A DNA stretch of 32,000 bases, taken from assembly GCA_041659405.1 (NCBI GenBank), contig JBAZYK010000005.1:61796-93795 (forward strand), written 5' to 3'. Source of the stretch: Candidatus Altimarinota bacterium (GTDB taxonomy: Bacteria; Patescibacteriota; Gracilibacteria; UBA1369). The position numbers and the translations under genes were made by a program. Shown here in pieces: positions 1,718 to 28,993 of this stretch; position 1 is the stretch's first letter, and every line of letters starts with the position of its first letter. The notes beneath the pieces were generated by a model, which saw nothing but the letters and a program-made list of their open reading frames with translations, did not search any database and had not been told where the DNA came from.

Positions 1718-3094
1718 CTAAAAAATCATGATCAAATCCCCTAAATTAGTTCCGGTTGGGCCGGTTTTGATGAGGCCGTTTGTTTTTTTGAAAAAAGTGT
1801 AGGAGTCGTTGCGATTTAAAAAGTCGTCGATTTTTAAGTGTTGTTTTTGGGCTGACTGTAAAATGGCTTGATGGCCGATCGCTCCGGCGATTGGCTCGGG
1901 ACAGATGCCATCAACGCCGTCGGTGCCAATTGAAAGGATGCAGTAATTGGAAAGTGCAGAATCCGCAGAAGTGTTTTTTTTAAATTCGTTTTTGGCCTGC
2001 AAGTATTTGAGTCCGCTTAAGACAAATTCCTGATTTCGGCCGCCGTTGCCTTTGCCTTTGCAGGTAACGGTGGTTTCTCCGCTGGCGATGAAGATATGCT
2101 TTTGAGATGTTTTTGAATCTGTCCCCAGTTTTGTTTTTATTTTTTTGATGATGGTTGGCGCAACTTTTCTCGCTTCACCCTGGATTAATTTTTTTGAAGA
2201 TGTGACTTTAAGGCCAAGCTCTTTTGCTCTTTCTTCTGCTACTTTTAGAGCAGTAAAGTGGTCGGCGATGATGTCCACATGAACCTTTTTAAAGATTTGC
2301 GATTGCGGACTTAAGGAGCTCCCTCCGTTCGCGCTGGCAATAGGCACTTTGTGCGTGTTGGAACTTTTGGATTTTGCAGCTTTTCGTTCTTGTAAAATTT
2401 TCAGCACTTTCTTTGGTACTTCGATTTTGTATTTTTTTAAAATATTTAAGGCACCCTGTGGAGTTGATTTATCGCTTGAAATAGGGCCGGAAGCGATTAA
2501 ACTTAAATCGTTGCCGATGACATCGGAAATCACCAATCCCCAAACGGTTGCAGGATATAAAATTTCGGCAAAATGGCCACCTTTAACCTGTGAAAGCTGT
2601 TTTCGGACTGTGTTGAGTTCTTGAATTGGCGCACCAGCTTTTAAAAGTTGATTAGTAATTTTAATTTCATCATTCAAAGTTATACCCGTAAGTGGGGCCA
2701 CAAACATTGCTGATCCTCCTCCGCTTATTAACACAATCGCCAAATCATTTTTGGTTAATTTTTTGGCACTGGAAATTATTTTTTTGGTTTTATTAAGACC
2801 GGCTTTGGTTGGCAAAGGATGGCCTTCATCTGCCAATAAAATAATATCCGGTTTTCGATTGTGATATTTTTTGAGTGATTTTTCGCTTGCCTTAGCCATT
2901 TGCCTGGCTGCTTTCCCAATCGCAAAAATGGCAATTTTTTCAAAACCACTTAAATCTTTTTTTTCAAAAAAATCCCCAATTAAATTTTCCGGCGAAATCT
3001 TCTCCAAAACAAAATCAACAATATCCAGCATGATACCGGCTTTTTCGGCAACCCCTTGCGGTAAATCCAGTAACAATTTTGTCCTATTAATCAT
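1718..3094 (-). CDS. Glycerate 2-kinase / hydroxypyruvate-reductase-like protein (MOFRL family, DUF4147 + MOFRL domains)
   Basis: Family-typical motifs: FAIGKAARQMA near the N-terminus, VLISGGGSAMF, SGETTV..GKGNGGRNQEF, and GTDGVDG near the C-terminus. The start is set at ATG 3094 (MINRTK...), which puts the GKAA motif about 60 aa in, as expected for the family. The longest ORF (start 3196) would read through the hairpin repeat at 3127-3202, so the start is ambiguous. Confidence 0.8.
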   Translation of the reverse strand: MINRTKLLLDLPQGVAEKAGIMLDIVDFVLEKISPENLIGDFFEKKDLSGFEKIAIFAIGKAARQMAKASEKSLKKYHNRKPDIILLADEGHPLPTKAGLNKTKKIISSAKKLTKNDLAIVLISGGGSAMFVAPLTGITLNDEIKITNQLLKAGAPIQELNTVRKQLSQVKGGHFAEILYPATVWGLVISDVIGNDLSLIASGPISSDKSTPQGALNILKKYKIEVPKKVLKILQERKAAKSKSSNTHKVPIASANGGSSLSPQSQIFKKVHVDIIADHFTALKVAEERAKELGLKVTSSKKLIQGEARKVAPTIIKKIKTKLGTDSKTSQKHIFIASGETTVTCKGKGNGGRNQEFVLSGLKYLQAKNEFKKNTSADSALSNYCILSIGTDGVDGICPEPIAGAIGHQAILQSAQKQHLKIDDFLNRNDSYTFFKKTNGLIKTGPTGTNLGDLIMIF

Positions 3095-3126
3095 ATATTT
3101 TTTGAAATTTCGAGCATATCTTTTCA

Positions 3127-3202
3127 GAACTAATGGGAATATTTTTCTGAACACATCCGGGGTAGGGGCCCTGTGTGTTCGGAAAAATATTCCCATTAGT
3201 TC
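3127..3202 (-). repeat. Conserved-loop hairpin element, copy A (stem about 29 bp with 1 mismatch; 18-nt loop)
   Basis: Arms 3127-3155 and 3174-3202 are reverse complements (29 nt, one mismatch). The loop 3156-3173 reads CAGGGCCCCTACCCCGGA on the minus strand, identical to the loops at 12895-12912 and 14889-14906. The element is co-oriented with the flanking minus-strand genes. Confidence 0.85.
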
Positions 3203-4176
3203 TTGATTTGCTCCTTATTCACGCAAAATTCCGGCATGCGGCCTTCAAGCGCATCAATCAGGTTTTGCGCTGCCATTTCGGCCATTTTATTTCTGGACCA
3301 TAAAGTGGCGCTGGCAATGTGTGGCACAATTACCGCATTTGGAAGCTCTGTAAGTCCCGGTTCAAGTGCCGGTTCATTTTCAAAAACATCCAAACCTGCG
3401 GCGAAAATCTTGCGCTCCTTTAAAGCTACCACCAAGGCTTTTTCGTCTACCACAGGCCCGCGCGAGGTGTTAATCAAAATGCAATTTGGTTTCATTTTGC
3501 CAAATTCTTTTTCACCAATTAAATGATGAGTTTCCTCGCTCAAATTTACATGCACAGAAATAAAATCGCTTTCTTTAAGCAAAGTTTCCAGATCAACTTT
3601 TTTTGCTCCGGTTTCTTTTTCCAATGATTCATTTCCTGATCGATCGACATACAAAATTTTCATGCCAAATCCTTTAGCCATTTTTATGGCTACATTACTG
3701 CCAATTCGCCCTGCTCCAACAATTCCAAGAGTTTTTCCGGTTACGTCCTGTCCCAAAAATAGAAGTGGGCCCCAGGCTTTAAATTTTCCTTCACGAGTGA
3801 ATTTGTCCGATTCCACAATTCTGCGAGCGCAGGAAAACAGCAAAGCAATCGCCAAATCCGCGGTGGCATCTGTTAAAACTCCGGGAGTGTTTGTTACCAT
3901 AATGTTTCTTTTACTCGCCGCCGCAACATCAATATTATTAAATCCGACGGCATAGTTGGAAATCACTTTCAATTGTGGGCCGATTAAAGCCATTATTTCA
4001 TCATCAATCGGATCGGTTAAAAGTGACAAAATAGCATCGCAACCTTTAACTTTTGCAATTAATTCTTCACGATCCAAAACACGATCTTCGGTATTCATTT
4101 CAAAACCTGGAAATTTTTGGCGTAAAAGTTGTAGTCCCGCTTCCGGAATTTCTCGTGTGACGTAAATTTTTGGCAT
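3196..4176 (-). CDS. D-isomer-specific 2-hydroxyacid dehydrogenase (glyoxylate / hydroxypyruvate reductase type)
   Basis: NAD-binding fingerprint GIVGAGRIGSNVA. Family-typical segments include NTPGVLTDATADLA, INTSRGPVVDE, AGLDVFENEP and VIVPHIASAT. The start is set at ATG 4176 (MPKIYVTREIP...). The longer ORF to 4275 begins with TTG and overlaps the upstream gene by 32 nt. Confidence 0.85.
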   Translation of the reverse strand: MPKIYVTREIPEAGLQLLRQKFPGFEMNTEDRVLDREELIAKVKGCDAILSLLTDPIDDEIMALIGPQLKVISNYAVGFNNIDVAAASKRNIMVTNTPGVLTDATADLAIALLFSCARRIVESDKFTREGKFKAWGPLLFLGQDVTGKTLGIVGAGRIGSNVAIKMAKGFGMKILYVDRSGNESLEKETGAKKVDLETLLKESDFISVHVNLSEETHHLIGEKEFGKMKPNCILINTSRGPVVDEKALVVALKERKIFAAGLDVFENEPALEPGLTELPNAVIVPHIASATLWSRNKMAEMAAQNLIDALEGRMPEFCVNKEQIKN

Positions 4177-6571: not shown

Positions 6572-7351
6572 ATGCTTTTCTTTATTTTTTCGTTATTGGT
6601 GGGGGTGGTTTTGTTTCTTGCGCCACTCATAATTTCTAAGCGACTAAGCCAAAAATGGCAGATCGACCGAAAAATCTTTTGGCGCGCCGGAATTTTCCAT
6701 GCCTTTATAATGCTGATTTATTTGTCCGTTCTTAGCAATTTGGAGGCGGTTTTTCCGGGCATTAATAATCTTGGTGAAGTTTGGCAAAGCCTGATAGCCG
6801 CAGCAATTACGGGGCTTTTTATAGAGCTTGGCAGATTTGTGGTACTGGATCGCTTTATGAAAAATGTCCGATCATCCAAAGAAGCAATTTATTTTGGATT
6901 TAGCTGGGCGGGCTTTTATGCCGTGGTTATCGGGATTTTTACCATTATCAATTCCTTTGGAATGTATTATCTGATGAATACCTCGAATATTGCCGCACAG
7001 TTTCCTCAGGCTACACCGGAGCAAATCCAACTGCTTGAAGAAGCCAAAAAACAGTCTACCGAAGATGCGCAAAAACCTTATATGGCCTTTGCGCCTTTAA
7101 TTGAAAACGCGAGTTTAATCATGATTGATGTTGCCATGACGCTTTTGATTTTGTTGGCAATTACAAAACCACTTACCCGCTTTGTGTGGCTTGCTGTAGG
7201 GTTTAAAGTCCTTGCCAATTTTGGAAGCTTTGCCTTGGCAAATGTTAATATTTTCCTGAGTGAAGCGAGTTTAATTTTATTTGCGGTGCTTAGTTACTTC
7301 CTAATTAAGCTTTTGCTGAAAAATTTTGTTCGTCCCACTTCTTTGCTTTAA
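6572..7351 (+). CDS. Polytopic membrane protein, possibly YhfC/DUF2324-like (tentative)
   Basis: About 6-7 hydrophobic segments. The motif GLFIELGRFVV resembles the ExxGR helix of YhfC/CPBP-type intramembrane proteins, but I cannot verify the rest of the signature. It starts 5 nt after the upstream gene. Confidence 0.55.
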   Translation: MLFFIFSLLVGVVLFLAPLIISKRLSQKWQIDRKIFWRAGIFHAFIMLIYLSVLSNLEAVFPGINNLGEVWQSLIAAAITGLFIELGRFVVLDRFMKNVRSSKEAIYFGFSWAGFYAVVIGIFTIINSFGMYYLMNTSNIAAQFPQATPEQIQLLEEAKKQSTEDAQKPYMAFAPLIENASLIMIDVAMTLLILLAITKPLTRFVWLAVGFKVLANFGSFALANVNIFLSEASLILFAVLSYFLIKLLLKNFVRPTSLL

Positions 7352-8024
7352 GAGCTTCATGCGCAGCTTCCTGTTCGGCTTTTTGCTTACTTGAACCGTT
7401 GCCCTCGGCTATCAACTCTTCGCCAACGTAAGCCGCCATAGTGAAGACCTTATCGTGATCCGGTCCTTCTTCTTTTATTACACGGTATTCTGGCGTGATT
7501 CCAAGTAAATCCTGCGACATTTCCTGGAATTGAGATTTTGCATCAATGTGTGAACCTTTTTTAAGGATTTCTTCCAGGCGCTTTAAGATAAATTCATCAA
7601 TAAAACCATGAGCCTCTTTATAACCCTGATCCAAATAAATCCCTCCAATTAAAGCTTCCAGCGTGTTGGCCAAAATGTAATTCTTTTTGCGACCACCGGA
7701 TTTTTCTTCTCCGCGGCTTAAATAAAGGTAAACTCCCAAATTAAGTTCATTTGAAATTTCCGCCAGATGTTTCCCCTTTACCAAAGCTGAGCGCCAATTG
7801 GTTAAAACACCTTCCGGTTCAGTGGGATAATTTTTATATAGAAATTCCGTAACCACCAATTCCAGCACGGCATCACCTAAAAACTCCAATCTTTCGTTGA
7901 ACTCTATTTTCTTATCCTTATGCTCGTTTACGTATGATTTATGAACAAAAGCAAGTTCTAAAAGTTTTTTATCTTTGAAAACAATGTTGATCTTTTTTTC
8001 GAGTTCTTCGTAACGGTTTAGCAC
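7305..8024 (-). CDS. rnc: Ribonuclease III
   Basis: RNase III signature ERLEFLGDAVLELVV, followed by NTLEALIGGIYLD and a C-terminal dsRBD-like region (FTMAAYVGEELIAEGNGSSKQKAEQEAAHEAL). Apparent GTG start at 8024. Confidence 0.9.
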   Translation of the reverse strand: MLNRYEELEKKINIVFKDKKLLELAFVHKSYVNEHKDKKIEFNERLEFLGDAVLELVVTEFLYKNYPTEPEGVLTNWRSALVKGKHLAEISNELNLGVYLYLSRGEEKSGGRKKNYILANTLEALIGGIYLDQGYKEAHGFIDEFILKRLEEILKKGSHIDAKSQFQEMSQDLLGITPEYRVIKEEGPDHDKVFTMAAYVGEELIAEGNGSSKQKAEQEAAHEALKAKKWDEQNFSAKA

Positions 8025-8743: not shown

Positions 8744-9355
8744 TTATTGCTGTTTCTTGGAGTCTTTCTTTGGTGTCTTTTTGACCGTTTTGCTCTTTTT
8801 CTCGTCTTTCTGAGCCACTAGAATATTTTGCAGGTCACCAAAGGGTTTATGAGTCTCTGTTAAGACATCTTCTTCCTCTTTGCATTCGCACTTGGTCTTG
8901 TTTCTATTGGCACCACAGTACATGCAAAGGCCCTTACAGCTTTTAGAGCATACTGGAATAAGTGGAAAATGCAAGATAATTTCTTGTCTTACCATCTCTG
9001 AAAGGTCTATGATCAGGGCTTTGGTGTTGATGAGGAAAACATCGCCGGGGTCTTCAATTTCTTTTGGGGCCTCGTGATAAAATTCGCGTTCGGCTTCGGG
9101 GATTACGATTGTCTGAACAAAATGCTCCAAACAAAGCTGGCATGTAAGATTAAGATCAACCTGGGCGTTGCTGATTAGAACGCTGATTTCTTCTTTAAGC
9201 TTGATCATCATTAAATCAGCCTTAAAATTACCGGCAAATTCAAGCCCCTGGTCTTGTGGATAAGAAATTTCCTGATCTATTTTTTCTTTTTCCGATGTCC
9301 CCTGCGGACTATTCCAAATCTTGGCGACACGAAAAGCGAGTTGAGTAAGTTTCAT
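8744..9355 (-). CDS. yceD: YceD/DUF177 family protein (large-subunit rRNA accumulation protein)
   Basis: C-terminal Cys cluster CSKSCKGLCMYCGANRNKTKCEC, typical of DUF177. Conserved position directly upstream of rpmF. Lys-rich tail. Confidence 0.75.
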   Translation of the reverse strand: MKLTQLAFRVAKIWNSPQGTSEKEKIDQEISYPQDQGLEFAGNFKADLMMIKLKEEISVLISNAQVDLNLTCQLCLEHFVQTIVIPEAEREFYHEAPKEIEDPGDVFLINTKALIIDLSEMVRQEIILHFPLIPVCSKSCKGLCMYCGANRNKTKCECKEEEDVLTETHKPFGDLQNILVAQKDEKKSKTVKKTPKKDSKKQQ

Positions 9356-10146: not shown

Positions 10147-11505
10147 TTACAAGGAATGCTTTTCATCAATTTCCTGTAGTCCTGAAAAAAGAGACTGCAA
10201 TATTTGTCTTAATTGTTCAAGGCGGGCTTTATAGTATTGTACTGTTCCATATTGCTCTTCCATTAGGGTGATTATTGGTTCCATAAGGGCTGGGTCAGCC
10301 TCGCATAAAGCTTTCGTCTTTAGAAAATAGCCCAGTTCCTCAATAGGAAACATCCTTGCTTCTAAACCTGTTAGTTCGCCAGGTTTTAATCTATCAAACA
10401 AGCTCTGATCAATTATATGCGAATCTAATAAAACTCTTTCAAGACCACGACGAACGCCAGTAATTATTTTCCAAGGCTCATGTTTGACTAATTCTGACAA
10501 CTGTTCAAGGGAGAGCGTTTTTGCCTTACCCTCAATAGCAGCCTGAAGCCTTTTAACCTTTTCATCTCCTTCGGTTAAAATTTTACTTGTTATACTTTTT
10601 GGAACGCCTACGAAATTAGCTAACCTGGTGTACGAAGCCCAGATTTTTCCAGGAGTGAGTTTGCTCGCACTATGTTCTGGCCCTACGGCAACAGACTCAA
10701 CTAAACCCAATGCCCCTATTATTTTTTTATGCTCCAGATAAACTTTATATCTTTTAAGAGCACCACCGTCAAGCTTTGTAAGCCCCATTTGAGCCAATAA
10801 AGGAGCTTTTAACTCAAATGCTTTTTGGGGATTAATGCTTATGGCTTTTTCCAATAGTCCTTTATTACCCAAGGCATCAATTACTTCCATTGGACTAAGT
10901 TTACTTTTGCGTTTTTTTCTACCATCATCGGAGTCGGCACCACTATCTTCGGCTTTAACACTGCCATTGTTGAACTTTATTGATATTTCATCCAGCTCTA
11001 AAAATGCACTGAAAATTTCCGGCTCAGCAGCTAATAAGGCTTGGGTTAGCGCTTCTTCTGAGAATGTACCTTCGCCCAAAATGAAACTTTTAGTTTCTTG
11101 CTCGCTTGTTCCGGTTTTTACAGGATACTTTGCCGCCAATCCACTTAATCTTAGCATTTCCATAACTGTTATCTCGCTTCCCAACTTTGGAGGGGCCATT
11201 GTTTTACTCCCAACGTATCCGGGAGGTGGCGCCATTGTTTTAGCTGCCAAGGCAGCCTTCCCGTATCCTGATTCTGGTGGAGGGGGCACTGTTCTTCCAT
11301 CAACCACAGCAGCCTCGTCCCCTATTTGCCTTAGACCTTCTTCCAGAAGTTGGTCTATATCATCATCATCTGGTTGTTGATTTCGTTCTGTCATAATTTT
11401 TTTAAAAATGGTTGCTATCTTAACAGGCATTGTCGCTTTTGTCAAATTTGAACAACCTAAAAAATATTCCGGGTGTGTGTTGATTTTTTTCGGGGCTTCA
11501 AACAT
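10147..11505 (-). CDS. Hypothetical protein (orphan), with an acidic/Pro-rich N-terminal region
   Basis: 452-aa uninterrupted ORF. Contains a near-repeat KTMAPPPGYVGSKTMAPPKLG. No recognisable catalytic motif. The start is uncertain, with alternative in-frame Met codons at residues 26 and 38. Confidence 0.55.
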   Translation of the reverse strand: MFEAPKKINTHPEYFLGCSNLTKATMPVKIATIFKKIMTERNQQPDDDDIDQLLEEGLRQIGDEAAVVDGRTVPPPPESGYGKAALAAKTMAPPPGYVGSKTMAPPKLGSEITVMEMLRLSGLAAKYPVKTGTSEQETKSFILGEGTFSEEALTQALLAAEPEIFSAFLELDEISIKFNNGSVKAEDSGADSDDGRKKRKSKLSPMEVIDALGNKGLLEKAISINPQKAFELKAPLLAQMGLTKLDGGALKRYKVYLEHKKIIGALGLVESVAVGPEHSASKLTPGKIWASYTRLANFVGVPKSITSKILTEGDEKVKRLQAAIEGKAKTLSLEQLSELVKHEPWKIITGVRRGLERVLLDSHIIDQSLFDRLKPGELTGLEARMFPIEELGYFLKTKALCEADPALMEPIITLMEEQYGTVQYYKARLEQLRQILQSLFSGLQEIDEKHSL

Positions 11506-11605
11506 TCGTCAAACTTGTCAAACCAACCTGCTTAAATGGACGCGCTAATTCTTGCATGTGATATCTGTTTGCGTTAGAATGTTATGGATTTTCGTATCGC
11601 AATTT

Positions 11606-12856
11606 ATGGCTTTCTTTAGACGTCTTCCTAAACCACGTGGAAATTATTATTTAGCTTTGGACATCGGAACAGAAGTGGTTAAAGCACTGATCTGTTCGGC
11701 CGAAGGTGATAAAGGCCGCATTCTTGGTGTTGGCAAAAAAAAGCAGCGCCTGGGTGACATGCAAAGTGGTGCAGTTACCGATATTGCGGCTGTAATCAAC
11801 AATTGTCAGGAAGCGATTCATCAGGCCGAAAAAATGGCTAATGCTTCCGCTTCCCGCTTGATTATGGGCATCGCGGGTGAACTTGTTAAAGGCGCGACAA
11901 CAACAATCAGTTACACTCGACGTGAGCCTGACACCAAAATCGACCTGGCGGAACTTAAAAATATTGTCCACAAAGTTCAGTGGAAAGCTTTTGATGAGGT
12001 TCGCTCGGAATTGGCTTTTGAAACCGGTTATAACGAGATTGATGTGAAGCTGGTTAACGCCGCGATTGTCGGTGTGCAAATTGATGGATATAAGGTTTCC
12101 AATCCGCTTGGTTTTCAGGGTAAGGATGTGACGATTTCGATTTTTAATGCTTTCGCGCCTTTGGTTCATTATGGAGCATTGCAAACGATTGCAGCGGAAC
12201 TTGATATGGATTTAATGGCGATTACTGCTGAGCCTTATGCGGTTTCGCGCTGTATGGGATTTGAAGATGGTGGTAATTTTAGCGGTATTTTTGTGGATAT
12301 TGGCGGCGGAACTACCGACATTGCCGTGGTTAGAAATGGCGGAGTGGAGGGCACGCGCATGTTTACATTGGGTGGCCGCACTTTTACAAAGCGCCTGGCT
12401 CAATCATTAAATATTTCTTTTGAGGAGGCCGAAGAAATTAAATTGGCTTATTCCAGCGACCGTCTGGAAAAACAGTCTCATCGCATTGTCCGTGAGGCCA
12501 TGAAGAGCGACTGTGAAGTTTGGCTTTCCGGCGTGGCTTTGACCTTAAGTGAATTTGAAAATGTTGATGTTTTGCCTTCAAAGATTTTCTTGTGTGGTGG
12601 CGGATCGTTGCTTCCGGAAATTAAAGAAGTGCTGGAAAGCCGTGACTGGACGCAAAAACTCCCCTTCCCTAAAAAACCACAGGTTAGTTTTATGCAGCCA
12701 AAAATGATCAGCAATATGAGTGATGAGACCAAATTATTAAAGGATGTTCAGGACATTACACCGATGGCGCTGGCGAATATTGCGCTTGAATATATGCAGG
12801 AGGAGCAGATTCTTTCGAAACTTCTTAAAAAAGTTGTACGATTAATGCAGATATAA
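11606..12856 (+). CDS. ftsA: Cell division protein FtsA (actin-like ATPase)
   Basis: Phosphate-1 motif YLALDIGTEVVKA and phosphate-2 motif IFVDIGGGTTDIAV, then GGRTFTKRLA and EEAEEIK, with an FtsA-like overall layout. The start is set at ATG 11606; the ORF-track start at 11552 is a TTG. Confidence 0.8.
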   Translation: MAFFRRLPKPRGNYYLALDIGTEVVKALICSAEGDKGRILGVGKKKQRLGDMQSGAVTDIAAVINNCQEAIHQAEKMANASASRLIMGIAGELVKGATTTISYTRREPDTKIDLAELKNIVHKVQWKAFDEVRSELAFETGYNEIDVKLVNAAIVGVQIDGYKVSNPLGFQGKDVTISIFNAFAPLVHYGALQTIAAELDMDLMAITAEPYAVSRCMGFEDGGNFSGIFVDIGGGTTDIAVVRNGGVEGTRMFTLGGRTFTKRLAQSLNISFEEAEEIKLAYSSDRLEKQSHRIVREAMKSDCEVWLSGVALTLSEFENVDVLPSKIFLCGGGSLLPEIKEVLESRDWTQKLPFPKKPQVSFMQPKMISNMSDETKLLKDVQDITPMALANIALEYMQEEQILSKLLKKVVRLMQI

Positions 12857-12861
12857 AGGGG

Positions 12862-12945
12862 GTTGGTCCTGCGAGGGAATTTCCTCCTCGGACACAGGGC
12901 CCCTACCCCGGATGTCCGAGGAGGAAATTCCCTCGCAGGACCAAC
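12862..12945 (+). repeat. Conserved-loop hairpin element, copy B (perfect 33-bp stem; 18-nt loop)
   Basis: 12862-12894 (GTTGGTCCTGCGAGGGAATTTCCTCCTCGGACA) is the exact reverse complement of 12913-12945. The loop 12895-12912 is CAGGGCCCCTACCCCGGA. The element starts 6 nt after the ftsA stop codon and ends 24 nt before the next start codon. Confidence 0.9.
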
Positions 12946-12968
12946 GAACATAATTAAAAAGTACATCA

Positions 12969-14852
12969 ATGGCACCTTTCAAGAAAAATTCGGCGAAAAG
13001 TTCTAAGGATTCTAAAAAAGAGGATCCAAAAATCATGGCTACTCGTCGGATTGGGAATACTGCCGATAAAGAAGAATCCGGGGTTGATGCCAGGGCTTTA
13101 AAGAGGCTGAATGCCAAAAAAGTCATTTATATAGAAATAGATGATGAAGTTACGCAGATTTACGACCGCCTGAAGCAGCTCAGAATGAAAAATATATATA
13201 TCGTGGCGCCAAAACGTGCGATTATTTTTCAGAGTATTATTAATTTGCGCATTCTTAAGCGAAAAGCGGAAGATCTTGGAAAAAATATTTATATAATTAC
13301 CAATGATCTTAATGGAGTTCATTTGGCGACTCAAATTGGCTTAACCGTTTATGATAAGCTGGAAGGTCACGAACATCCAAGTCTGGTTTCCGGTAAATTT
13401 CTTGAAGATCAACAGAATATTACGCCTTTAAAAGCCAGTATTAACGCGCTCGATGATGATGCTCCAACCCGACAGACCGAACGTAAACTTTCGATTTCGG
13501 AAATGATCCGAACCGGAAAACGTAAAGGACTTGCCATTATCGCCAAAAATCTTAGTTTAAAAAAACAAAAAAAAGATGCTGCGAAAAAAGGTGATGATAA
13601 AGGAAAATTGGTTCTGGTCGCCCCAAACAGGCAGGCATTGATTGCTTTAATTGTGGTTAGTTTGATTATTTTGTTAACGATTACTTACATTGCTCTGCCG
13701 GGTTCTACGCTTCACCTTACGCCAAAATCCAATGTATTAGAGACTTCCGTGAACATAATTTTGGCTGATGTGGATTTAAATCAGGGGGAACTGGACACGC
13801 ATCCCGTTCATGAAATTCCAAGTTATACAATTACAACCACCATTAAAAAGGCCATGACTTATCAGGCAACCGGTAAAAACTTTCAGGGGCAGAACGCTAC
13901 CGGAGTTATTACCGTAATTAATGCCAGCAACCAGCCTTGGCCGTTAATTGCCAATACGCGCTTCCAAACCAGTGAAAATCTGGTATTTAGGAGTCAAAAG
14001 TATGTAACGGTACCGGCCCAAAATGGCAATACCCCGGGGACAATTGATATTCCGGTTGTGGCTGACCCGCTGGATGCCATGAATCAGGTAATAGGAGAAA
14101 GAGGAAATGTTGGACCAACCAAATTCTTTTTACCGGGTCTTTCTGCGGACAACCAGAAGAAACTTTATGCGGAAAATAAGACGAATATGACCGGTGGAAA
14201 AACCATTGTGAATAAACAAATAGCTAAAGAAGACTTGGCTGCGGCTCAAGCAAAAATGCAGGCTGATTTAAAGGCTTCCGCGCAGGTTGAGCTTCAATCC
14301 GTTATTAACAAACAAAACAATCAACAGAAGACAAATTTGGTGCTTTTAACTGATTCAAAAGCCATCCAGTCGGGTGATGCAAAGGTGACGATTCCACCTA
14401 ATCTGGAAGGGCAAAAACTGGATTCTTTTGATGTTCAGGGTGAAATTACGGTCAGTGGGGTGGCTTATGATCAGACGGAAATGATGAATATGCTTAAATC
14501 AGAATTGAAATTAAAGAAGAATCCGGAAAAACGGTTGGTTCATATTGATGATAATTCCCTAACTTATCGTGTTGTGGATATAGACGCGGTTAATAAGAAG
14601 GTCAAAATAACCGCAACAATTAAAGGAATTGAAGAGTTCGAAATCAGTCCGGAAAAAGAAAATGGCGCCAGATTGATTAAGAAAATCAAGGAACATGTGG
14701 TTGGGAAGGATATTAAAGAGGCGCGCGATTATATTCAAAATCTGCCGGAAATTGATAAAGTTAAGGTTGATAGCTGGCCGGCTTGGGCGCCGACCATGCC
14801 AAGCGTGCCGGATAATATCCGTATTGATGTGGTTTCGGGGCAGGATAGTTAA
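12969..14852 (+). CDS. Hypothetical single-pass membrane protein with a large extracytoplasmic domain. Distantly reminiscent of baseplate-J-like proteins (very tentative).
   Basis: 627 aa. A cytoplasmic N-terminal domain, one TM helix (ALIALIVVSLIILLTITYIAL), then a long beta-rich region (e.g. GVITVINASNQPWPLIANTRFQTSENLVFRS..VTVPA). Co-directional with ftsA. Confidence 0.6.
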   Translation: MAPFKKNSAKSSKDSKKEDPKIMATRRIGNTADKEESGVDARALKRLNAKKVIYIEIDDEVTQIYDRLKQLRMKNIYIVAPKRAIIFQSIINLRILKRKAEDLGKNIYIITNDLNGVHLATQIGLTVYDKLEGHEHPSLVSGKFLEDQQNITPLKASINALDDDAPTRQTERKLSISEMIRTGKRKGLAIIAKNLSLKKQKKDAAKKGDDKGKLVLVAPNRQALIALIVVSLIILLTITYIALPGSTLHLTPKSNVLETSVNIILADVDLNQGELDTHPVHEIPSYTITTTIKKAMTYQATGKNFQGQNATGVITVINASNQPWPLIANTRFQTSENLVFRSQKYVTVPAQNGNTPGTIDIPVVADPLDAMNQVIGERGNVGPTKFFLPGLSADNQKKLYAENKTNMTGGKTIVNKQIAKEDLAAAQAKMQADLKASAQVELQSVINKQNNQQKTNLVLLTDSKAIQSGDAKVTIPPNLEGQKLDSFDVQGEITVSGVAYDQTEMMNMLKSELKLKKNPEKRLVHIDDNSLTYRVVDIDAVNKKVKITATIKGIEEFEISPEKENGARLIKKIKEHVVGKDIKEARDYIQNLPEIDKVKVDSWPAWAPTMPSVPDNIRIDVVSGQDS

Positions 14853-14857
14853 GGGGC

Positions 14858-14937
14858 GTTCAGGGTTGTAGGAATATCCCTTCACACACAGGGCCCCTAC
14901 CCCGGATGTGTTCAGGGATATTCCTACAACCCTGAAC
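14858..14937 (+). repeat. Conserved-loop hairpin element, copy C (31-nt arms, 29 paired; 18-nt loop)
   Basis: Arms 14858-14888 and 14907-14937 are complementary except for a 2x2 internal mismatch. The loop 14889-14906 is CAGGGCCCCTACCCCGGA. The element starts 6 nt after the stop codon at 14852. Confidence 0.9.
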
Positions 14938-15015
14938 ATAAGGATTTCCTTAATTTTTAATATCGGACCTAATTTAGCTATTTTATGGCTTGTTTTGCTT
15001 TTATGACCGCTACGC

Positions 15016-15043
15016 TTGACAAAATCGATCATTTGTGTAAAAT
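15016..15043 (+). promoter_or_regulatory. Candidate sigma-70-type promoter for the PKD-repeat gene
   Basis: Consensus -35 TTGACA (15016-15021), a 16-nt spacer, then -10 TAAAAT (15038-15043), 37 nt upstream of ATG 15080. Confidence 0.45.
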
Positions 15044-15079
15044 AGATCCTCAAGATACAATCTTTCATTAAAAGGATCA

Positions 15080-16177
15080 ATGAAACTAAGGAATCTAACA
15101 ATTATCGGCTTACTTACACTACTGCTGCCGTCTGAAGCGACATTTGCCGCCTATAACAGCATGCTTGCGCCTACCAATTTTACGCCTGCGAATTACATTC
15201 AGCCGAGTTATGATCCTTTTTCTGCCAGCAATACCTATGCGCCAACTTTGCCGGAAGATCAACCGGATACTGCTCCCGTGGCCGCTTTTAATATTTACAA
15301 TGGTGGGTTTTTCCAGAATAACAACGTGGGCACAACGGATACCGCCTTTACCTTTGATGGAAGCTCTTCTTATGATTCTGAAACCGATTCTTCCCGCTTG
15401 GAAGTTCGTTGGGATTTTGAAAATGATGGCGTAATTGACGGTTATTTTTCGGTCATCAAAAGCATTAAACATACATTTAAAAAACCCGGAGTTTATCAGG
15501 TAAAAATGGAGGTTTTGGATCGTGCCGGAAATGTCTCCAAAGCCACCAAAACTGTAACCGTAGTGGCAAATACAGATCCGATTCCGGCATTTTCGTATAC
15601 TCCTATAAGTGATACCAACAACACAATTTTTCAATTTGATACCCACGTTTCCAGAAGTGACCAGTTTGTGGCTTCAACTCTGCAATATCGTTTTGACTGG
15701 AATGGCGACTCCAAATGGGACACAAAATATCAGGCAAAAACTATCTGGAATCATCTTTTTGACTCAGCAGGATCACACAATGTGATTATGGAGGTAAAAG
15801 ACCCGGGTGGTCATACTGCTAAGGTAAATAGGGCTATTTCTACTTTTGAAAATACCCCACCGGTTGCTTCTTTTGGAGTTTTTACCGGCACTTTTAGCAG
15901 CTATGAATTTAATGCGAAAGCTACGACAGACGCAGAAACTGCTCACTATCGTTTATTTTATCGCTGGGACTTTGAATATAGCGGCACAAATGACATTATG
16001 TACAACACTTACGCCGGCAATACGGATCGTGTTTCTTACAATTATAAAACTCCCGGACATAAAATTGTGCGCCTGGAGGTAATGGACGCATATGGCGCAA
16101 AATCCTATGCCTATGCCGAATTTGATGTTCCCTGGACTAAAGTGATGGCCCAAAATTTGATTGCGCCACTTAAGTAA
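15080..16177 (+). CDS. Secreted protein with three PKD-like domains
   Basis: Signal peptide (LTIIGLLTLLLPSEATFA). Three repeats of the PKD pattern F.FDGS.S.D....L..RWDF.NDG......S..H.F..PG.Y.V.LEV.D..G, e.g. FTFDGSSSYD...RWDFENDG...HTFKKPGVYQVKMEVLDRAGN. Confidence 0.8.
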   Translation: MKLRNLTIIGLLTLLLPSEATFAAYNSMLAPTNFTPANYIQPSYDPFSASNTYAPTLPEDQPDTAPVAAFNIYNGGFFQNNNVGTTDTAFTFDGSSSYDSETDSSRLEVRWDFENDGVIDGYFSVIKSIKHTFKKPGVYQVKMEVLDRAGNVSKATKTVTVVANTDPIPAFSYTPISDTNNTIFQFDTHVSRSDQFVASTLQYRFDWNGDSKWDTKYQAKTIWNHLFDSAGSHNVIMEVKDPGGHTAKVNRAISTFENTPPVASFGVFTGTFSSYEFNAKATTDAETAHYRLFYRWDFEYSGTNDIMYNTYAGNTDRVSYNYKTPGHKIVRLEVMDAYGAKSYAYAEFDVPWTKVMAQNLIAPLK

Positions 16178-21674: not shown

Positions 21675-23534
21675 ATGGACAATCAAAAAATCGCACAAAT
21701 TTTTCAGGAGATTGGTGATATTCTTGATATTCAGGGCGAAAATCGATTCAGAGTTTTGGCTTACAATAAAGCTGCGCAGGAAATTGCCAACTGGCCAAGA
21801 GAAATGTCCGATGTTTTAAATGAAAATCCCAAAAAACTGGAAGAAATTCCGGGAATCGGCAAAGATCTGGCGCTAAAAATTGTGGAAATGTTAAAAACCG
21901 GAAAGTGCCAATATCATGAAGATTTATTGAAAAAATTTGATAAAGGTCTGCTGCAGATTTTGCGTTTGCGGGGTGTCGGTCCCAAAAAAGTTAAACTTTT
22001 TTATTCGTCTCTCCAAATTAATAATATTGAAAAATTGCGCGCGGCGGCAACGGCGGGAATGCTGCGCGATCTTCCGGGAATGGGCGAAAAAAGCGAACAG
22101 GAAATTTTAAAAAGTCTGGAAGAATACGACAAGCACACGGACAGAATGTTGCTTTCTGATGCGATGCACCAGGTTGAGAAAATTATTGCCTATTTAAAAA
22201 AATGTCCGCTGGTGAAGCGAGTTGAGTATGCGGGAAGTTTGCGCAGACGGAAGGAAACAATTGGCGATCTGGATATTTTGGTGGCGACAAAAAATCCCGC
22301 TAAAGATGCGGAAAAAATCATGGATTATTTTGTGAAATATCCGGAGATGGATAAAGTCATTGGCAAAGGCGAAACCAAGACTTCAATTATTTTAAAATCA
22401 GGGGTGCAATCCGATTTGCGTGTGCTGGATGAGAAAATTTTTGGAGCGGCGTTGCATTATTTTACAGGATCAAAAGATCACAATATTGTAATTCGCGATA
22501 AGGCAAAAAAAATGGGGCTTAAAATCAGTGAATATGGCGTTTTTAGGTTAGAAAAAGCGCGCGGAGGAAAAGAGCCGCGTGAAATTTTGATTGGCGGAAA
22601 AACGGAAGAAGAAATTTTTAAAGCTGTTGGTCTTCCGTATATAGAGCCGGAAATGCGTGAAAATCGTGGAGAATTCCAGGCTGCGGAAAAAGGGAAACTC
22701 CCAAAATTAATTCGCTATGAAGATTTGCGCGGAGATCTGCACGTACACAGCAAATGGAGTGATGGGGCGTGTTCAATCGAGGAAATTGCGCGGGCTTATC
22801 GTGATGCCGGTTTTGAGTATATCGCGCTGACTGATCATTCCCCTGCCGTGACGGTTGCGCATGGACTGAGCGCGGATAGATTTGAATTGCAGTGGGATGA
22901 AATTGATGCGATCAATAAAGATTTGGCTAAGGAGGCCGCGGAGTGGGCAAACAATGGAGGTAAAAAGAATACGCTACAGCAAAATAACGATGGTAAAGCG
23001 TCGTCGGACAAGCCGCCGCTGCCGTTCACTATTTTAAAAGGCGTGGAATGTGACATTAAACCGGATGGAACGATGGATCTGCCGAACAGCGTTTTGAAGC
23101 ATTTTGATGTGGTGGTGGCCTCGATTCATTCGCGTTTTAATATGAGTCTAAAAGAGCAGACCGAACGCGTTTTAAAGGCTTTTAAAAATCCTTATGTCAC
23201 GATTTTTGGACATCCGAGTGGAAGATTAATAAATCAGCGCGAACCTTATGAAATCGATATGGAAGCGGTAATTAACGCGGCCGTGGAACACGATATTTGT
23301 CTGGAAATTGACGGCCAGCCCGATCGCCTGGATCTGTTTGATTTTTACTGCAAAATGGCCAAAGAAAAAGGCGCAAAATTCACCGTGGATTCCGATTCGC
23401 ACCATACCAATCAAATGACTTACTTAAATTTTGCCCTTGCTGTTGCCAAACGCGGCTGGCTGGAAAAAAGCGATGTGATGAACACAATGGGCCTGAAAGA
23501 TTTGAAAAAGTTTTTAATAAAGCGTAAGGGGTGA
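21675..23534 (+). CDS. polX: Family X DNA polymerase with a C-terminal PHP phosphoesterase domain (PolX)
   Basis: N-terminal 8-kDa/HhH region IAQIFQEIGDILDIQGENRFRVLAYNKAAQ. HhH motifs (IPGIGKDLA, LRGVGPKK). Nucleotidyltransferase motif GSLRRRKETIGDLDILV. PHP motifs DLHVHSKWSDG, ALTDHS and SDSH. Confidence 0.9.
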   Translation: MDNQKIAQIFQEIGDILDIQGENRFRVLAYNKAAQEIANWPREMSDVLNENPKKLEEIPGIGKDLALKIVEMLKTGKCQYHEDLLKKFDKGLLQILRLRGVGPKKVKLFYSSLQINNIEKLRAAATAGMLRDLPGMGEKSEQEILKSLEEYDKHTDRMLLSDAMHQVEKIIAYLKKCPLVKRVEYAGSLRRRKETIGDLDILVATKNPAKDAEKIMDYFVKYPEMDKVIGKGETKTSIILKSGVQSDLRVLDEKIFGAALHYFTGSKDHNIVIRDKAKKMGLKISEYGVFRLEKARGGKEPREILIGGKTEEEIFKAVGLPYIEPEMRENRGEFQAAEKGKLPKLIRYEDLRGDLHVHSKWSDGACSIEEIARAYRDAGFEYIALTDHSPAVTVAHGLSADRFELQWDEIDAINKDLAKEAAEWANNGGKKNTLQQNNDGKASSDKPPLPFTILKGVECDIKPDGTMDLPNSVLKHFDVVVASIHSRFNMSLKEQTERVLKAFKNPYVTIFGHPSGRLINQREPYEIDMEAVINAAVEHDICLEIDGQPDRLDLFDFYCKMAKEKGAKFTVDSDSHHTNQMTYLNFALAVAKRGWLEKSDVMNTMGLKDLKKFLIKRKG

Positions 23535-23601: not shown

Positions 23602-23627
23602 GAGACAGTTTTTTAATTTTGAAAAAA

Positions 23628-25316
23628 ATGCGCCAAGAGATTCAAGAAAAACTCAAAAACATGCCTAATTTGCTTTCTATAGGCCAAGTTTCGGAGATTT
23701 TTGCAATCCATCCGGACACGCTTAGGAATTGGGAGAAAGAAGGCATTCTCGTGCCGTTGCGTTTCGGGCCACGCAAAGATCGCAAATACCGACCACAAGA
23801 TATTGAAGCAATTGTGGATAAGGTCGGCAGCCAACTGACTCTTCCTCAACTCGAAAGATTTTTGTGGAAAAGTGCGGATATTCTTCGCGGAAAGATCGAC
23901 AGTTCAGATTATAAAAAATATATTTTTGGGTTACTTTTTTACAAACGCATCAGTGATGTTTGGGATGAGGAACATGAAAAAGTAATGAGCGAGTTCAATG
24001 ATGAAAATCTTGCTAAAGCCGATTACAATCACCGTTTTCAGGTTACGGAAGACTGTAAATGGTCGGTCATAACGCAGCAGGCTGAAAATATTGGACCAAA
24101 ACTTAATGAAATTTTTGATAAGCTTACAAATGCCAACAGCCCAAAGCTTGATAAGATTTTTGATGATCTGGATTTTGCCAATAAGGACAAATTCCCGAAT
24201 GAAACACTTCAAAAGCTGATCAACCATTTTTCGCAGTATAGCTTTGCCAGCAATTATATCAGTTCGGATTTGCTTGGTGATGCTTATGAATATTTGATCA
24301 AACAATTTGCGGCCGATGCCGGCAAAAAAGGTGGTGAATTTTACACCCCGCGTGAAGTTGAACGCGTTATTATCGAGATCCTCAAGCCAAAAGAAAAAGA
24401 TCATATTTATGACCCAACAGTTGGCTCCGGCGGTTTTTTGTTGGAGTCTTATCATTATCTTAAAGCAAAGGCTGGCGAAAAAATTGCTAATACACTTTAT
24501 CTTTATGGGCAGGAAGCCAATCTTGGAACCTTTGCTATTTCCAAAATCAACATGTTCTTACACGGCCTTGATAGTGCCGATATTCGTCGAGGTGATACTT
24601 TAGCCAATCCTCAATTTTTAGATGACCTTGGGGCTTTGCAAAAGTTTGATATCGTAGTGGCAAACCCGCCGTATTCAATTAAAGAATGGGCAACGGATTT
24701 TTTTAGAACTAATAAGTTTGGTCGGCTTCAGGGCTACGATATGCCACCTGAAAAGAATGCCGATTATGCATTTATTCTGCATATTTTGAAATCACTTAAA
24801 TCAAATGGTCGTGCGGGCGTTGTGCTTCCTCATGGTGTACTTTTTCGTGGTGGCAGTGAAGGAAGAATCCGCGAACAGATCATCAAAAACGATTTACTGG
24901 AATGTGTTATTTCCATGCCTGCAAAACTTTTTTATGGTGTTGGAATTCCGGTTGCAATTTTAATTTTTAATCCCAGTAAACCGGACCACAAAAAGAATAA
25001 GATTATGTTTATCGAAGCCGAAAAAGATTATCTGGAAGGCAAAAATCAGAATTCACTGCGCAAACAGGATATTGATAAAATCGTTGGTACTTATGATTCC
25101 TGGAAAGACGTTGAAAAAATCGCCCGAATTGTGGATCTGAAAGAAATTGAAGGAAATGAATTCAACCTCAACGTTCGCCGTTACATTGATACGAGCGTGG
25201 AAGAAGAAAAGATCGATGTGGCTGCCGTTTGGCAGGAATTGCAAACCCTTGAACAAGACCGCGAAAAAATTGACCAGCAGGTGGCGAGTTATCTTAAAGA
25301 ACTTAAATATTTTTAA
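23628..25316 (+). CDS. hsdM: Type I restriction-modification system methyltransferase subunit (HsdM) with an N-terminal MerR-type HTH extension
   Basis: HsdM_N pattern LPQLERFLWKSADILRGKIDSSDYKKYIFGLLFYKRISD. AdoMet motif I DPTVGSGGFLL. Catalytic motif IV VVANPPYS (N6-adenine MTase). The first 65 aa or so (LLSIGQVSEIFAIHPDTLRNWEKEGILVPLRFGPRKDRKYRPQDIEAI) match the MerR-family HTH pattern. ATG at 23628; the ORF-track start 23619 is a TTG. Confidence 0.9.
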   Translation: MRQEIQEKLKNMPNLLSIGQVSEIFAIHPDTLRNWEKEGILVPLRFGPRKDRKYRPQDIEAIVDKVGSQLTLPQLERFLWKSADILRGKIDSSDYKKYIFGLLFYKRISDVWDEEHEKVMSEFNDENLAKADYNHRFQVTEDCKWSVITQQAENIGPKLNEIFDKLTNANSPKLDKIFDDLDFANKDKFPNETLQKLINHFSQYSFASNYISSDLLGDAYEYLIKQFAADAGKKGGEFYTPREVERVIIEILKPKEKDHIYDPTVGSGGFLLESYHYLKAKAGEKIANTLYLYGQEANLGTFAISKINMFLHGLDSADIRRGDTLANPQFLDDLGALQKFDIVVANPPYSIKEWATDFFRTNKFGRLQGYDMPPEKNADYAFILHILKSLKSNGRAGVVLPHGVLFRGGSEGRIREQIIKNDLLECVISMPAKLFYGVGIPVAILIFNPSKPDHKKNKIMFIEAEKDYLEGKNQNSLRKQDIDKIVGTYDSWKDVEKIARIVDLKEIEGNEFNLNVRRYIDTSVEEEKIDVAAVWQELQTLEQDREKIDQQVASYLKELKYF

Positions 25317-25943
25317 ATGGCTTATATATTTTTAGATGAAAGTGGAGATCTTGGATTTGGGAAAAAATCATCAAAGTTTTTTGTTATAACATTTCTTTTT
25401 GTTGAAAATAAAAGAGTTATCGAGAAGGTTGTTTCAAAAACTCATGCAGAACTTAAAAAAATACATCGAACAAAAAGTGGGATACTGCATTGCTTCCACG
25501 AAAAACCGATTACTCGTCAAAGACTTTTAGCAAGAATAGCTCAAAAGAACTGTATGATTATGACTATTTACCTTGAAAAAGAGAAAGTTTATACAAAATT
25601 ACCTGATGAAAAAATTGTTCTTTATAATTATGTAGCAAACATCCTCCTTGATCGTATTTTTAGCAAAAAGCTTCATGGTGATCATAAAGTCATTTTGATA
25701 GCTTCCAGAAAAGAAACTAACAAATTTTTAAATGAAAATTTCAAAAATTATCTTTCAAGTCAGATAAAAAATAATCATCAGATTGATCTGCAAATAGAAA
25801 TCAAGACGCCACATGATGAAAAAGCACTGCAAGCTGTCGATTTTATCAGCTGGTCAATTTATAGAAAATACGAATATAAAGATCACAATTATTACGATCT
25901 TTTTAAAGAAAAAATCGTGGAAGAAAACCCACTGTATAAATAA
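25317..25943 (+). CDS. DUF3800-family protein (uncharacterised)
   Basis: The N-terminal YIFLDESGDLGF and C-terminal LQAVDFISWSIYRKYE match the two conserved blocks I recall for DUF3800. Its ATG immediately follows the hsdM stop (TAA ATG, no spacer), implying co-transcription or translational coupling. Confidence 0.7.
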   Translation: MAYIFLDESGDLGFGKKSSKFFVITFLFVENKRVIEKVVSKTHAELKKIHRTKSGILHCFHEKPITRQRLLARIAQKNCMIMTIYLEKEKVYTKLPDEKIVLYNYVANILLDRIFSKKLHGDHKVILIASRKETNKFLNENFKNYLSSQIKNNHQIDLQIEIKTPHDEKALQAVDFISWSIYRKYEYKDHNYYDLFKEKIVEENPLYK

Positions 25944-26079
25944 CAAAACCCCTTATGCTATTTACGAGCAACCATTCCGGAAGCCCACATAAGAGGAATT
26001 ACTTGTTCTGGTAATAGTATAGCGTGGACTATACCTTGCGGTCAATATCTATAACATTATGAAATTATATAAATAAATT

Positions 26080-26244
26080 ATGGATACCAATTTAATGCTA
26101 ATATCTCACAATAAAAAATTTGACGAAATAAAAGTTAAATCAGCCTTTACATTGGGTAGACAAGATGTTGTGGATCATCTTGCTGATATCAGCAAAGTGA
26201 TCGTGGGGTGGGTACAATTTGTACCTATCCTTGACGCAAAATGA
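26080..26244 (+). CDS. Possible small protein (54 aa), hypothetical
   Basis: Hand-translated ATG...TGA ORF (MDTNLMLISHNKKFDEIKVKSAFTLGRQDVVDHLADISKVIVGWVQFVPILDAK). It is below the 60-aa cutoff of the ORF track and lies in the otherwise unexplained 319-nt gap 25944-26262. No other support. Confidence 0.25.
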   Translation: MDTNLMLISHNKKFDEIKVKSAFTLGRQDVVDHLADISKVIVGWVQFVPILDAK

Positions 26245-26262
26245 GATGTAAATATGGGCTAG

Positions 26263-26715
26263 ATGGTATTATTTGAATCAATTATGGAATTTAAAAAATT
26301 TAAACCTATGAGTATCTACGATGCCGCCAAGGATGCCGCTAAAATCCTACAGGAAGCAGGAAAAATCAATGAATATCAAAAAATTCTTGATTTGATCGAT
26401 GATTCATTAAACAAAAGGCATAAGATTGATGAGCTCGAAATGGAAAATCGTGAACTCAAAGAAAAGTTGAAGACCAAAGATGCTTATAGCTTCAAAAATA
26501 ACGCTTATTGGCATAAAGAAACTGGCGATGGCCCTTTTTGTTCAAGATGTTTTGATAAGCATAAGGATTTGATTAGGATTATTCCTGATTCTAACAACAG
26601 CAGTTGGGCCAAATGCCCTGAATGTAAAAATAGCGTTAATTACACGGGAAAAGAGGTGAAGCCACGAAGTTACAATGTCTCTGGCGAACATTTTGATCGA
26701 TTTTCAGCTATTTAA
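26263..26715 (+). CDS. Hypothetical coiled-coil protein with a C-terminal CxxC...CxxC zinc ribbon
   Basis: 150 aa. Helical/coiled segment KIDELEMENRELKEKLKTK, then CSRCFDKHKDLIRIIPDSNNSSWAKCPECKN. It ends 8 nt before the next gene. Confidence 0.6.
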   Translation: MVLFESIMEFKKFKPMSIYDAAKDAAKILQEAGKINEYQKILDLIDDSLNKRHKIDELEMENRELKEKLKTKDAYSFKNNAYWHKETGDGPFCSRCFDKHKDLIRIIPDSNNSSWAKCPECKNSVNYTGKEVKPRSYNVSGEHFDRFSAI

Positions 26716-26723
26716 ATTTGTTT

Positions 26724-27398: not shown

Positions 27399-27411
27399 TA
27401 TCTTAAAAATC

Positions 27412-27822: not shown

Positions 27823-27835
27823 TTTTAAGAAACTT

Positions 27836-28987: not shown

Positions 28988-28993
28988 TGTTAA

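Follow-up and report, generated by a model that had tools for sequence, protein, structure and literature searches.

Three long hairpins with an identical loop at stop codons of a Peregrinibacteria-type chromosome: candidate young palindromic insertions

What keeps the two arms of a long hairpin complementary when their sequence differs from copy to copy and the loop that they carry does not change at all? The question is raised by three stem-loops in a 32,000-nt stretch of Candidatus Altimarinota bacterium (assembly GCA_041659405.1, contig JBAZYK010000005.1, positions 61,796 to 93,795; hereafter the window), which comes from the chromosome of a bacterium of Peregrinibacteria type, within the candidate phyla radiation (CPR), and has open reading frames (ORFs) that are long under the standard code; NCBI lists its proteins, among them MFA5829485.1 and MFA5829496.1, under a "Candidatus Gracilibacteria bacterium" metagenome-assembled genome. 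A first-pass annotation, made from the letters alone, had seen in them selection on a host RNA hairpin that presents a fixed loop. Comparison with related sequences leads us to favour, with moderate confidence, a different reading, in which the hairpins would be a young, lineage-restricted, non-autonomous palindromic insertion element resembling miniature transposable elements of the inverted-repeat type (MITEs) and repetitive extragenic palindromes (REPs). Among small palindromic dispersed repeats it is unusual in its invariant GC-rich apex, its copy-specific outer stems and its insertion at TAA stops in a CPR genome. The copies, counted in the 32-kb window, are numbered as follows.

3126 to 3203, minus strand: copy 1, stem-loop with 30-bp arms, one C·A mismatch and loop 3173-3156; the last codons and TAA stop (3198-3196) of the upstream gene ghrB (glyoxylate/hydroxypyruvate reductase) lie in the stem; downstream gene, glycerate kinase
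12862 to 12945, plus strand: copy 2, stem-loop with 33/33 bp and loop 12895-12912, between an upstream ftsA/pilM-like gene and a downstream conserved gene for a 627-aa protein
14858 to 14937, plus strand: copy 3, stem-loop with 29/31 bp and loop 14889-14906, between the stop of the upstream 627-aa gene and a promoter-like site (15016-15043) that is followed by a PKD-domain gene

The three hairpins form a real, non-random family. The 18-nt loop CAGGGCCCCTACCCCGGA occurs exactly three times in the window (3156-3173 on the minus strand, 12895-12912 and 14889-14906 on the plus strand) and finds no further match there at up to three mismatches, with 0.01 expected by chance, so that the identity of the loop stands as first described. 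The same is true of the loop-proximal ACA/TGT pairs, which make the identical block 24 nt long in all three copies (ACA-loop-TGT, ACACAGGGCCCCTACCCCGGATGT); between copies 1 and 3 the identity extends to 32 nt (ACACA-loop-TGTGTTCAG). This apex contains the palindromic hexamer GGGCCC and CCCC/GGGG tracts. An inverted-repeat search returned arms of 33 nt with 100% complementarity for copy 2 (12862-12894/12913-12945), 30 nt with 97% for copy 1 (3126-3155/3174-3203) and 31 nt with 94% for copy 3 (14858-14888/14907-14937), spaced by 18 nt in every case, and the folding z-scores of all three lie between -9 and -12 on both strands. Counted as Watson-Crick pairs, the stems hold 33/33 (copy 2), 29/30 (copy 1) and 29/31 (copy 3), which reproduces the earlier counts except for copy 1, previously given as 28/29. 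Outside the apex the only recognisable homology is the inner block GGAATWT, 18-20 nt from the loop, and the stems differ between copies yet stay paired, as had been noticed at first sight: 16 of 32 aligned pairs are changed on both sides. The initial description of the outer stem halves as unrelated holds for the outermost 9-13 bp, which are specific to each copy, but goes too far for copies 2 and 3, in both of which the stem ends are GTT…AAC, four G follow the stop and the right end reads GAACATAA.

Perfect palindromes can be produced by chimeras of multiple displacement amplification or by hairpin adapters, and the family might in principle be an assembly, amplification or adapter artefact. 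The chance of this is negligible: a Logan contig (L041, SRR6484324) of the same strain, obtained from separate short reads with a separate assembler, is 100% identical to window positions 12916-14906 over 1991 nt, each copy has unique flanks and a different stem, and the reading frames on both sides are intact. That contig starts inside the 3' arm of copy 2 and stops on the last base of the copy 3 loop, that is, at hairpins, because de Bruijn graphs break at repeated palindromes.

Relatives place the hairpins in time. At the sister locus L036, which has 92.8% nucleotide identity to the window over 3.6 kb and a GhrB that is 98% identical, the copy 1 site consists of 12 nt (GCTTCAGAAATA) as against 112 nt in the window, a net gain of 100 nt, and the ghrB and glycerate kinase genes are 13 nt apart. 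An outgroup with an 83% identical GhrB (L037-39) is also without a hairpin at this site, which favours a gain in the lineage of the window, with polarity resting on parsimony with one outgroup. At the copy 2 site the ftsA-like and following genes are separated by 12-39 nt in six relatives and by 112 nt in the window, and no hairpin is present there in L018/19, L020-23, L024, L025, L026 or L040. The copy 3 site has no hairpin in four of five relatives (L018, L020-23, L025 and L040), and the fifth, L026 (JGI 3300064746), has a different one in the orthologous intergenic region. The latter, at 3803-3882, combines a perfect 30-bp stem with a different, GC-rich loop of 20 nt (AGTCCTCGCGGGGCTGCGGG); its mid-stem shares GGGcATATTcTTTT with copy 1 and, as GGGCATATTCTTTT, resembles that copy, and an imperfect outer extension spans about 3781-3901. 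It is the one comparable hairpin in about 190 kb of relatives' DNA. Since the window holds three in 32 kb and the relatives nearly none, the hairpins look like recent, lineage-restricted gains, and on these alignments the three are most likely recent insertions of this kind, not conserved regulatory sites.

The limits of the insertions can be proposed from the ends. Copies 2 and 3 share the structure TAA/(A)GGGG(C)/stem-loop/…GAACA/TAA, in which the left TAA is the stop codon of the upstream gene, and the corresponding segments, together with that of copy 1, are these.

3097 to 3208, minus strand: copy 1 insertion segment, 112 nt holding copy 1, as against 12 nt in L036
12857 to 12950, plus strand: putative full copy 2 insertion, 94 bp, made of AGGGG, the stem-loop and GAACA; flanks TAA 12854-12856 (the stop) and TAA 12951-12953
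14853 to 14938, plus strand: putative full copy 3 insertion, 86 bp, made of GGGGC, the stem-loop and A, ending GAACA; flanks TAA 14850-14852 (the stop) and TAA 14939-14941

The 8-mer GAACATAA occurs four times on both strands of the window (64 kb), two of these being the right ends of copies 2 and 3, and removal of the two units leaves spacers of 15 nt and about 138 nt, both in the range seen in relatives. The characterization as the opposite of a MITE does not hold for copies 2 and 3, since these do share their ends (TAA/GGGG … GAACA/TAA). From their sequence, the TAA flanks look like a short target duplication. Duplications of 3 bp with the sequence TNA or TWA are typical of some IS5/PIF-type transposons and their MITEs, and a TAA target would explain why the hairpins adjoin stop codons: with spacers of 12-40 nt, the stop codon would be one of the few TAA sites at which an insertion could be tolerated harmlessly.

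Copy 1 has a different relation to its gene. Its net gain of 100 nt is 22 nt beyond the 78-nt perfect palindrome. GhrB has 326 aa in both the window and the sister, with the last three residues IKN in the former and LQK in the latter, so that the two proteins differ at 3 of 3 terminal residues as against 6 of 323 elsewhere (Fisher p = 1.5e-5). The helix continues past a small internal loop into the conserved ghrB coding sequence GAGCA (GAGCAAATC / GATATGCTC), an imperfect outer extension that reaches 3213, slightly beyond the 3097-3208 segment on the ghrB side. Because the tail of GhrB differs and the helix runs into coding sequence, the palindrome appears either to have rewritten the end of ghrB or to have been built from it. 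A native-flank origin was also considered for the outer arms of copies 2 and 3 and rejected: 2 of 11 comparisons reached p ~0.02 (CTGCGA in L020; GC[C/G]TTCAG in L026), which is unconvincing after multiple testing.

The pairing itself bears on whether DNA or RNA is the level at which complementarity is kept. In RNA stems whose sequence diverges under selection, G·U intermediates are normally found on the strand that is transcribed. Across the three copies 91 of 94 stem pairs are Watson-Crick and none is a G·U pair on the sense strand; a single wobble appears when the antisense strand is read, in copy 1, and the antisense apex would lengthen by 6 bp through two more G·U pairs. The antisense RNA is predicted to give the more stable fold in all three copies (-79.5/-62.0/-55.2 kcal/mol as against -75.3/-55.2/-46.5 kcal/mol for the sense strand). 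Four features argue for a cause at the DNA level. The first is this near-complete Watson-Crick pairing without G·U on the sense strand; the second is the internal architecture of copy 3, whose outer 8 bp repeat its own inner stem (GTTCAGGG / CCCTGAAC), and of copy 2, whose arm is a nested quasi-palindrome (8/11 pairs), as iterated template switching produces; the third is the encroachment of the copy 1 palindrome on the coding end of ghrB; the fourth is the probable youth of the copies. We infer that stem complementarity is maintained as a DNA palindrome and not by stepwise RNA compensation. If the copies post-date the split from the sister (~7% divergence), purifying selection need not be invoked for the unchanged 3 x 24 nt of apex; the differences among the stems, on the other hand, are far greater than ordinary point mutation could have made in that time. 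Template switching during replication makes or repairs perfect stems and introduces multi-base "compensatory" changes in single events (PMC8794818), and it is also described as homogenising and expanding the arms of inverted repeats (PMC13100816, PMC8604942). Such quasi-palindrome mutation fits the perfect stems, the nested repeats of copy 3 and the three rewritten ghrB codons; being a mutational process, it cannot alone place an identical apex of 24-32 nt at three unlinked loci.

The positions of the hairpins relative to genes were correctly described at the outset. Every copy is at a stop codon, the stem following the stop by 5 nt in copy 2 (stop 12854-12856, then AGGGG) and copy 3 (stop 14850-14852, then GGGGC) and including it in copy 1 (stop 3198-3196); two copies shortly precede the next start, at 23 nt from the copy 2 stem (start 12969) and 31 nt from the copy 1 stem (start 3094); and the loop has the sense orientation of the upstream gene in 3/3 cases. 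The co-orientation has p = 0.25 and is confounded with a switch of gene orientation and GC skew at ~11.5 kb. Stop proximity under uniform intergenic placement gives a naive product of 2.4e-4, a post hoc figure from three copies only; the same proximity would be seen if selection removed insertions that disrupt downstream start regions. Two neighbouring features matter for what the hairpins might do as RNA.

7305 to 8024, minus strand: rnc, the RNase III gene, part of the context; transcripts of such stems, if made, would be expected targets of RNase III cleavage
15016 to 15043, plus strand: sigma-70-like site TTGACA-16-TAAAAT, the best in 20 kb, downstream of copy 3; relatives have the same TTGACA…TAAAAT arrangement

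It is here that the idea of host-selected cis-regulatory RNA hairpins, which would offer RNase III or a protein a fixed 18-nt loop while their stems drift, has to be weighed. An apex identical in all three copies over differing stems, a loop always in the sense orientation and the adjoining stops are what it would lead one to expect. The first-pass annotation had further pointed out that the stems are long enough for RNase III and that rnc is encoded in the window, and both points stand, the predicted sense-strand helices of 29-33 bp (-46 to -75 kcal/mol) having the size of RNase III substrates (~20 bp or more). The loop end …GGAUGU, closed by ACA/UGU, may also resemble the CsrA consensus RUACARGGAUGU from systematic evolution of ligands by exponential enrichment. 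Against these stand the lack of the hairpins in the 92.8%-identical sister and in more distant relatives with conserved genes and spacing, the lack of sense-strand G·U pairs and the better folding of the antisense RNA, the functional unrelatedness of the three flanking gene pairs, the lack of an Rfam family and the weak orientation statistic; together with the probable youth of the copies, they lead us to set aside selection on a host RNA hairpin as the origin of the family and to regard this explanation as unlikely. An RNA role may still have been added by secondary co-option.

The same positions after stops could suggest terminators or insulators of intrinsic type that do without a U-tract, with copy 3 lying between a stop and the strongest promoter-like site of the region. 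We judge this very unlikely. No T-run follows any copy, in agreement with what was first reported; copy 2 interrupts two genes that all relatives keep 12-39 nt apart and presumably transcribe together; the lineage has ordinary terminators with a GC-rich stem and a T-run (window 158-141; L020 16676-16705); and the geometry, 30-33 bp of stem and 18 nt of loop, is nowhere near that of a terminator, a terminator scan omitting the hairpins.

A conserved loop on variable but paired stems is also the pattern of HUH-nuclease origins and of attC sites, and the hairpins might be substrates of a hairpin-specific enzyme acting on single-stranded DNA. This could be an HUH transposase of the Y1 kind (RAYT or IS200/IS605) or, as the first-pass annotation had also proposed, a hairpin-recognising recombinase, like IntI on attC. 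Such an enzyme would read the apex by sequence and the stem only by shape, leaving the stems free to change while paired. The orientation of the copies follows that of the local genes and skew, as targeting of the lagging-strand template would lead one to expect; each arm of copy 3 can fold the same 8-bp hairpin in direct orientation, reminiscent of IS200/IS605 ends; and GTAG is central in the antisense apex (GGGGTAGGGG). Yet the window encodes no such enzyme, copy 1 lacks the nested arm hairpins, and the bracketing of copies 2 and 3 by TAA…TAA points to a duplication of cut-and-paste style, which Y1 transposases do not make. With attC the hairpins share conserved structure, variable sequence, position after stop codons and co-orientation with genes. 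The attC site has an outer R'' box (RYYYAAC) on the 5' side and an R' box (GTTRRRY) on the 3' side, extrahelical bases and a variable centre, whereas copies 2 and 3 have GTT first and AAC last, in reverse order, copy 1 (CAAGAAC…GTTCTGA) is off consensus, and the stems are 94-100% paired around an invariant centre. Nor is there a cassette array, for the flanking genes (ghrB/glycerate kinase; ftsA-like/627-aa/PKD) are syntenic chromosomal genes in relatives and intI is not in the window. REPs, for their part, are imperfect palindromes of 20-40 bp with a GTAG/CGTC tag at one end (PMC3733652), and REP/REPIN sequences are extragenic palindromes after genes, with proposed roles in mRNA stabilisation or termination, whose folded strands are read by an HUH enzyme (PMC3733652, PMC2817692, PMC8266576). 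The window hairpins are likewise extragenic palindromes after genes, but they are near-perfect, 78-84 bp long and have an 18-nt loop, with GTAG only at the centre of the antisense apex and neither GTAG nor CGTC at the foot; REPs usually exceed 100 copies, as against the three seen here. Taken together, these observations leave the hairpin-specific enzyme a modest but appreciable chance of being the right answer.

Closer likenesses are found among MITEs. Terminal inverted repeats are present, in that the 30-33-bp arms span the element, with the outermost 9-13 bp differing between copies, and presence or absence at orthologous sites is seen in the empty sites of relatives; direct TAA…TAA flanks bracket copies 2 and 3, whereas copy 1 has no direct repeat. 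Like the Correia elements (CREE) of Neisseria, which are MITEs, the window hairpins belong to a size class of ~80-150 bp, are non-coding and almost wholly inverted repeat, lie in intergenic regions next to genes and are present or absent between close genomes. Correia elements are transcribed hairpin repeats that are bound or cut by RNase III (PMC2649163). In both cases a short A/T-rich target duplication is possible: TA in Correia, TAA in copies 2 and 3 of the window. The two are unrelated in sequence, and unlike Correia the window hairpins have only the apex and GGAATWT in common between copies, no known cognate insertion sequence and three copies seen.

A mobile palindromic element could account for the family in the following way. 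The common unit would be of ~60 bp, an invariant 24-nt GC-rich apex on arms of ~20 bp with the GGAATWT block, and would insert into the tiny intergenic spaces of a compact genome at or right after TAA stops, an adjacency that may combine target preference with survival of the harmless insertions. Perfect stems could be reached by two routes: spread by way of an intermediate that is a folded single strand or is self-templated, either arm serving as template for its partner, or template switching in replication, which would homogenise and extend the arms, at copy 1 into the last three ghrB codons. Stem differences between copies would then mark different element lineages or local remodelling. 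The copies are probably co-transcribed with the upstream gene into an RNA helix of 29-33 bp, which might act as a barrier to 3' exonucleases and be cut by RNase III, and might thereby uncouple or stabilise the cistrons on either side; this RNA effect would be a by-product, perhaps co-opted. At copy 2 the helix would split a normally tightly coupled gene pair, and at copy 3, which is placed at an operon end because the best sigma-70-like site of 20 kb is downstream, it would cap the operon. The invariant apex would be the likeliest recognition determinant of the mobilising enzyme, presumably encoded outside the window.

A more radical variant is a self-templating hairpin element, of which only the apex and one arm are transmitted and the second arm is made by fold-back priming, giving inverted target duplications. 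Adjoining target sequence, including the host stop and last codons, would sometimes be copied inverted, so that outer stems would derive from the target site, a mutation in the transmitted arm would be instantly "compensated" and the driving enzyme would again recognise the GC-rich apex. We hold this variant to be improbable.

Several observations weigh against a palindromic insertion element. A precise deletion in the sister lineage, in place of an insertion here, could also account for the difference at copy 1. That copy stands outside the TAA…TAA scheme, its TAA being inside the stem with TTA opposite and no direct repeat flanking it, and its junction with L036 is not placeable to the nucleotide, as a quasi-palindromic native gene-end motif, TTCAGAA(A)NAAT, recurs four times in the region. 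A MITE would not typically have unrelated outer stems, its ends being normally the conserved part, and selection on the apex could be the reason why it is invariant while the arms have diverged. No transposase, HUH nuclease, RAYT or integrase gene is encoded in the window. Searches for the 18-mer loop gave 17 matches among 185,579 representative genomes (596 Gb), roughly as many as chance would give an 18-mer and none in a hairpin context, and no match in viral contigs; the 24-mer apex had none in JGI metagenomes. With three copies to go by, orientation and target preference are no more than suggestive.

Other searches for relatives of the element gave no further members. A covariance model built from the hairpins (R1), run on the window and 12 related loci (166 kb), returned the known three and the truncated ends of L041 only; the model does not recognise the L026 hairpin. 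The 20-nt loop of the latter had nine unrelated matches in metagenomes, six of them in one homologous coding sequence and none in a hairpin. BLAST with copy 3 gave chance matches of 25 nt in Salmonella phages as the only phage hits and nothing in plasmids. Rfam at the gathering threshold found only a tRNA in the window, and the sub-threshold matches of the hairpins were generic microRNA-precursor hairpins (27-36 bits as against thresholds of 57-97). A profile of the hairpin translated in the HRAPTPDV frame had no match among 1.84 billion protein representatives, and a coding role was rejected, as the loop frame of copy 3 differs from that of copies 1 and 2 and stop codons intervene. L026 also carries a second, AT-rich repeat (TGTCATTTGTCA…TTGCTCATTT) at 3968-4000 and 8817-8895, once as a single arm and once as a hairpin with a 24-bp stem and a 27-nt loop.

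Further observations concern the surroundings of the hairpins. A minus-strand ORF (1718-3196) runs through copy 1 in frame with glycerate kinase from an ATG that overlaps the ghrB stop (TAATG), and gene callers could annotate from it a spurious N-terminal extension of 33 aa (MGIFFRTHRAPTPDVFRKIFPLVLKRYARNFKKY). At ~11500, between the genes at 10147-11505 (minus) and 11552-12856 (plus), gene orientation and GC skew change sign, the skew passing from negative on the left to positive on the right, at a minimum of the cumulative skew. The skew stays positive in two minus-strand genes on the right, which hints at a replication-related switch; per-gene skews around this point are mixed, and neither dnaA nor a DnaA-box region is evident in the window. 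The gene trio at 11552-16177, also found in L018-L026 and L040, is conserved across Peregrinibacteria and encodes an FtsA/PilM-like ATPase, a protein of 600-630 aa without a Pfam or NCBIfam match, and a PKD-domain protein with a weak match to the model NF058578 of the CPR pilus protein PamR (E = 6e-4); it may be a pilus or cell-surface module. Near the hairpins, at 21675-23534, lies the gene for PolX, a DNA polymerase of family X with a PHP domain; it is syntenic in L018 and L026, and no link between it and the hairpins is evident. Positions 23619-29698 hold a type I restriction-modification island with HsdM carrying an N-terminal MerR-type helix-turn-helix (23619-25316), a DUF3800 protein (25317-25943), several ORFs of no known function and HsdS (27836-28987). 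Its GC content of 0.32-0.36 is lower than the 0.40-0.43 found elsewhere, which is why it was probably acquired horizontally.

The small, reduced genomes of CPR/Patescibacteria are usually described as poor in dispersed repeats. A hairpin repeat that settles on stop codons and splits conserved operons would be a source of both genome and expression change in such an organism. Its copies can be expected to fragment de Bruijn assemblies of this organism systematically and to be under-represented in contig collections for that reason, and they can create false N-terminal gene extensions, as in ORF 1718-3196. "Covarying" stems round a fixed loop can, moreover, stem from palindrome dynamics at the DNA level, which calls for caution in covariation-based RNA discovery. 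Were the element self-templating, it would represent a mode of transposition that gives inverted, not direct, target duplications, and if the apex is indeed the recognition site of an enzyme, the hairpins would offer a minimal substrate, of ~60 bp, for a hairpin-specific DNA or RNA enzyme of an uncultured lineage.

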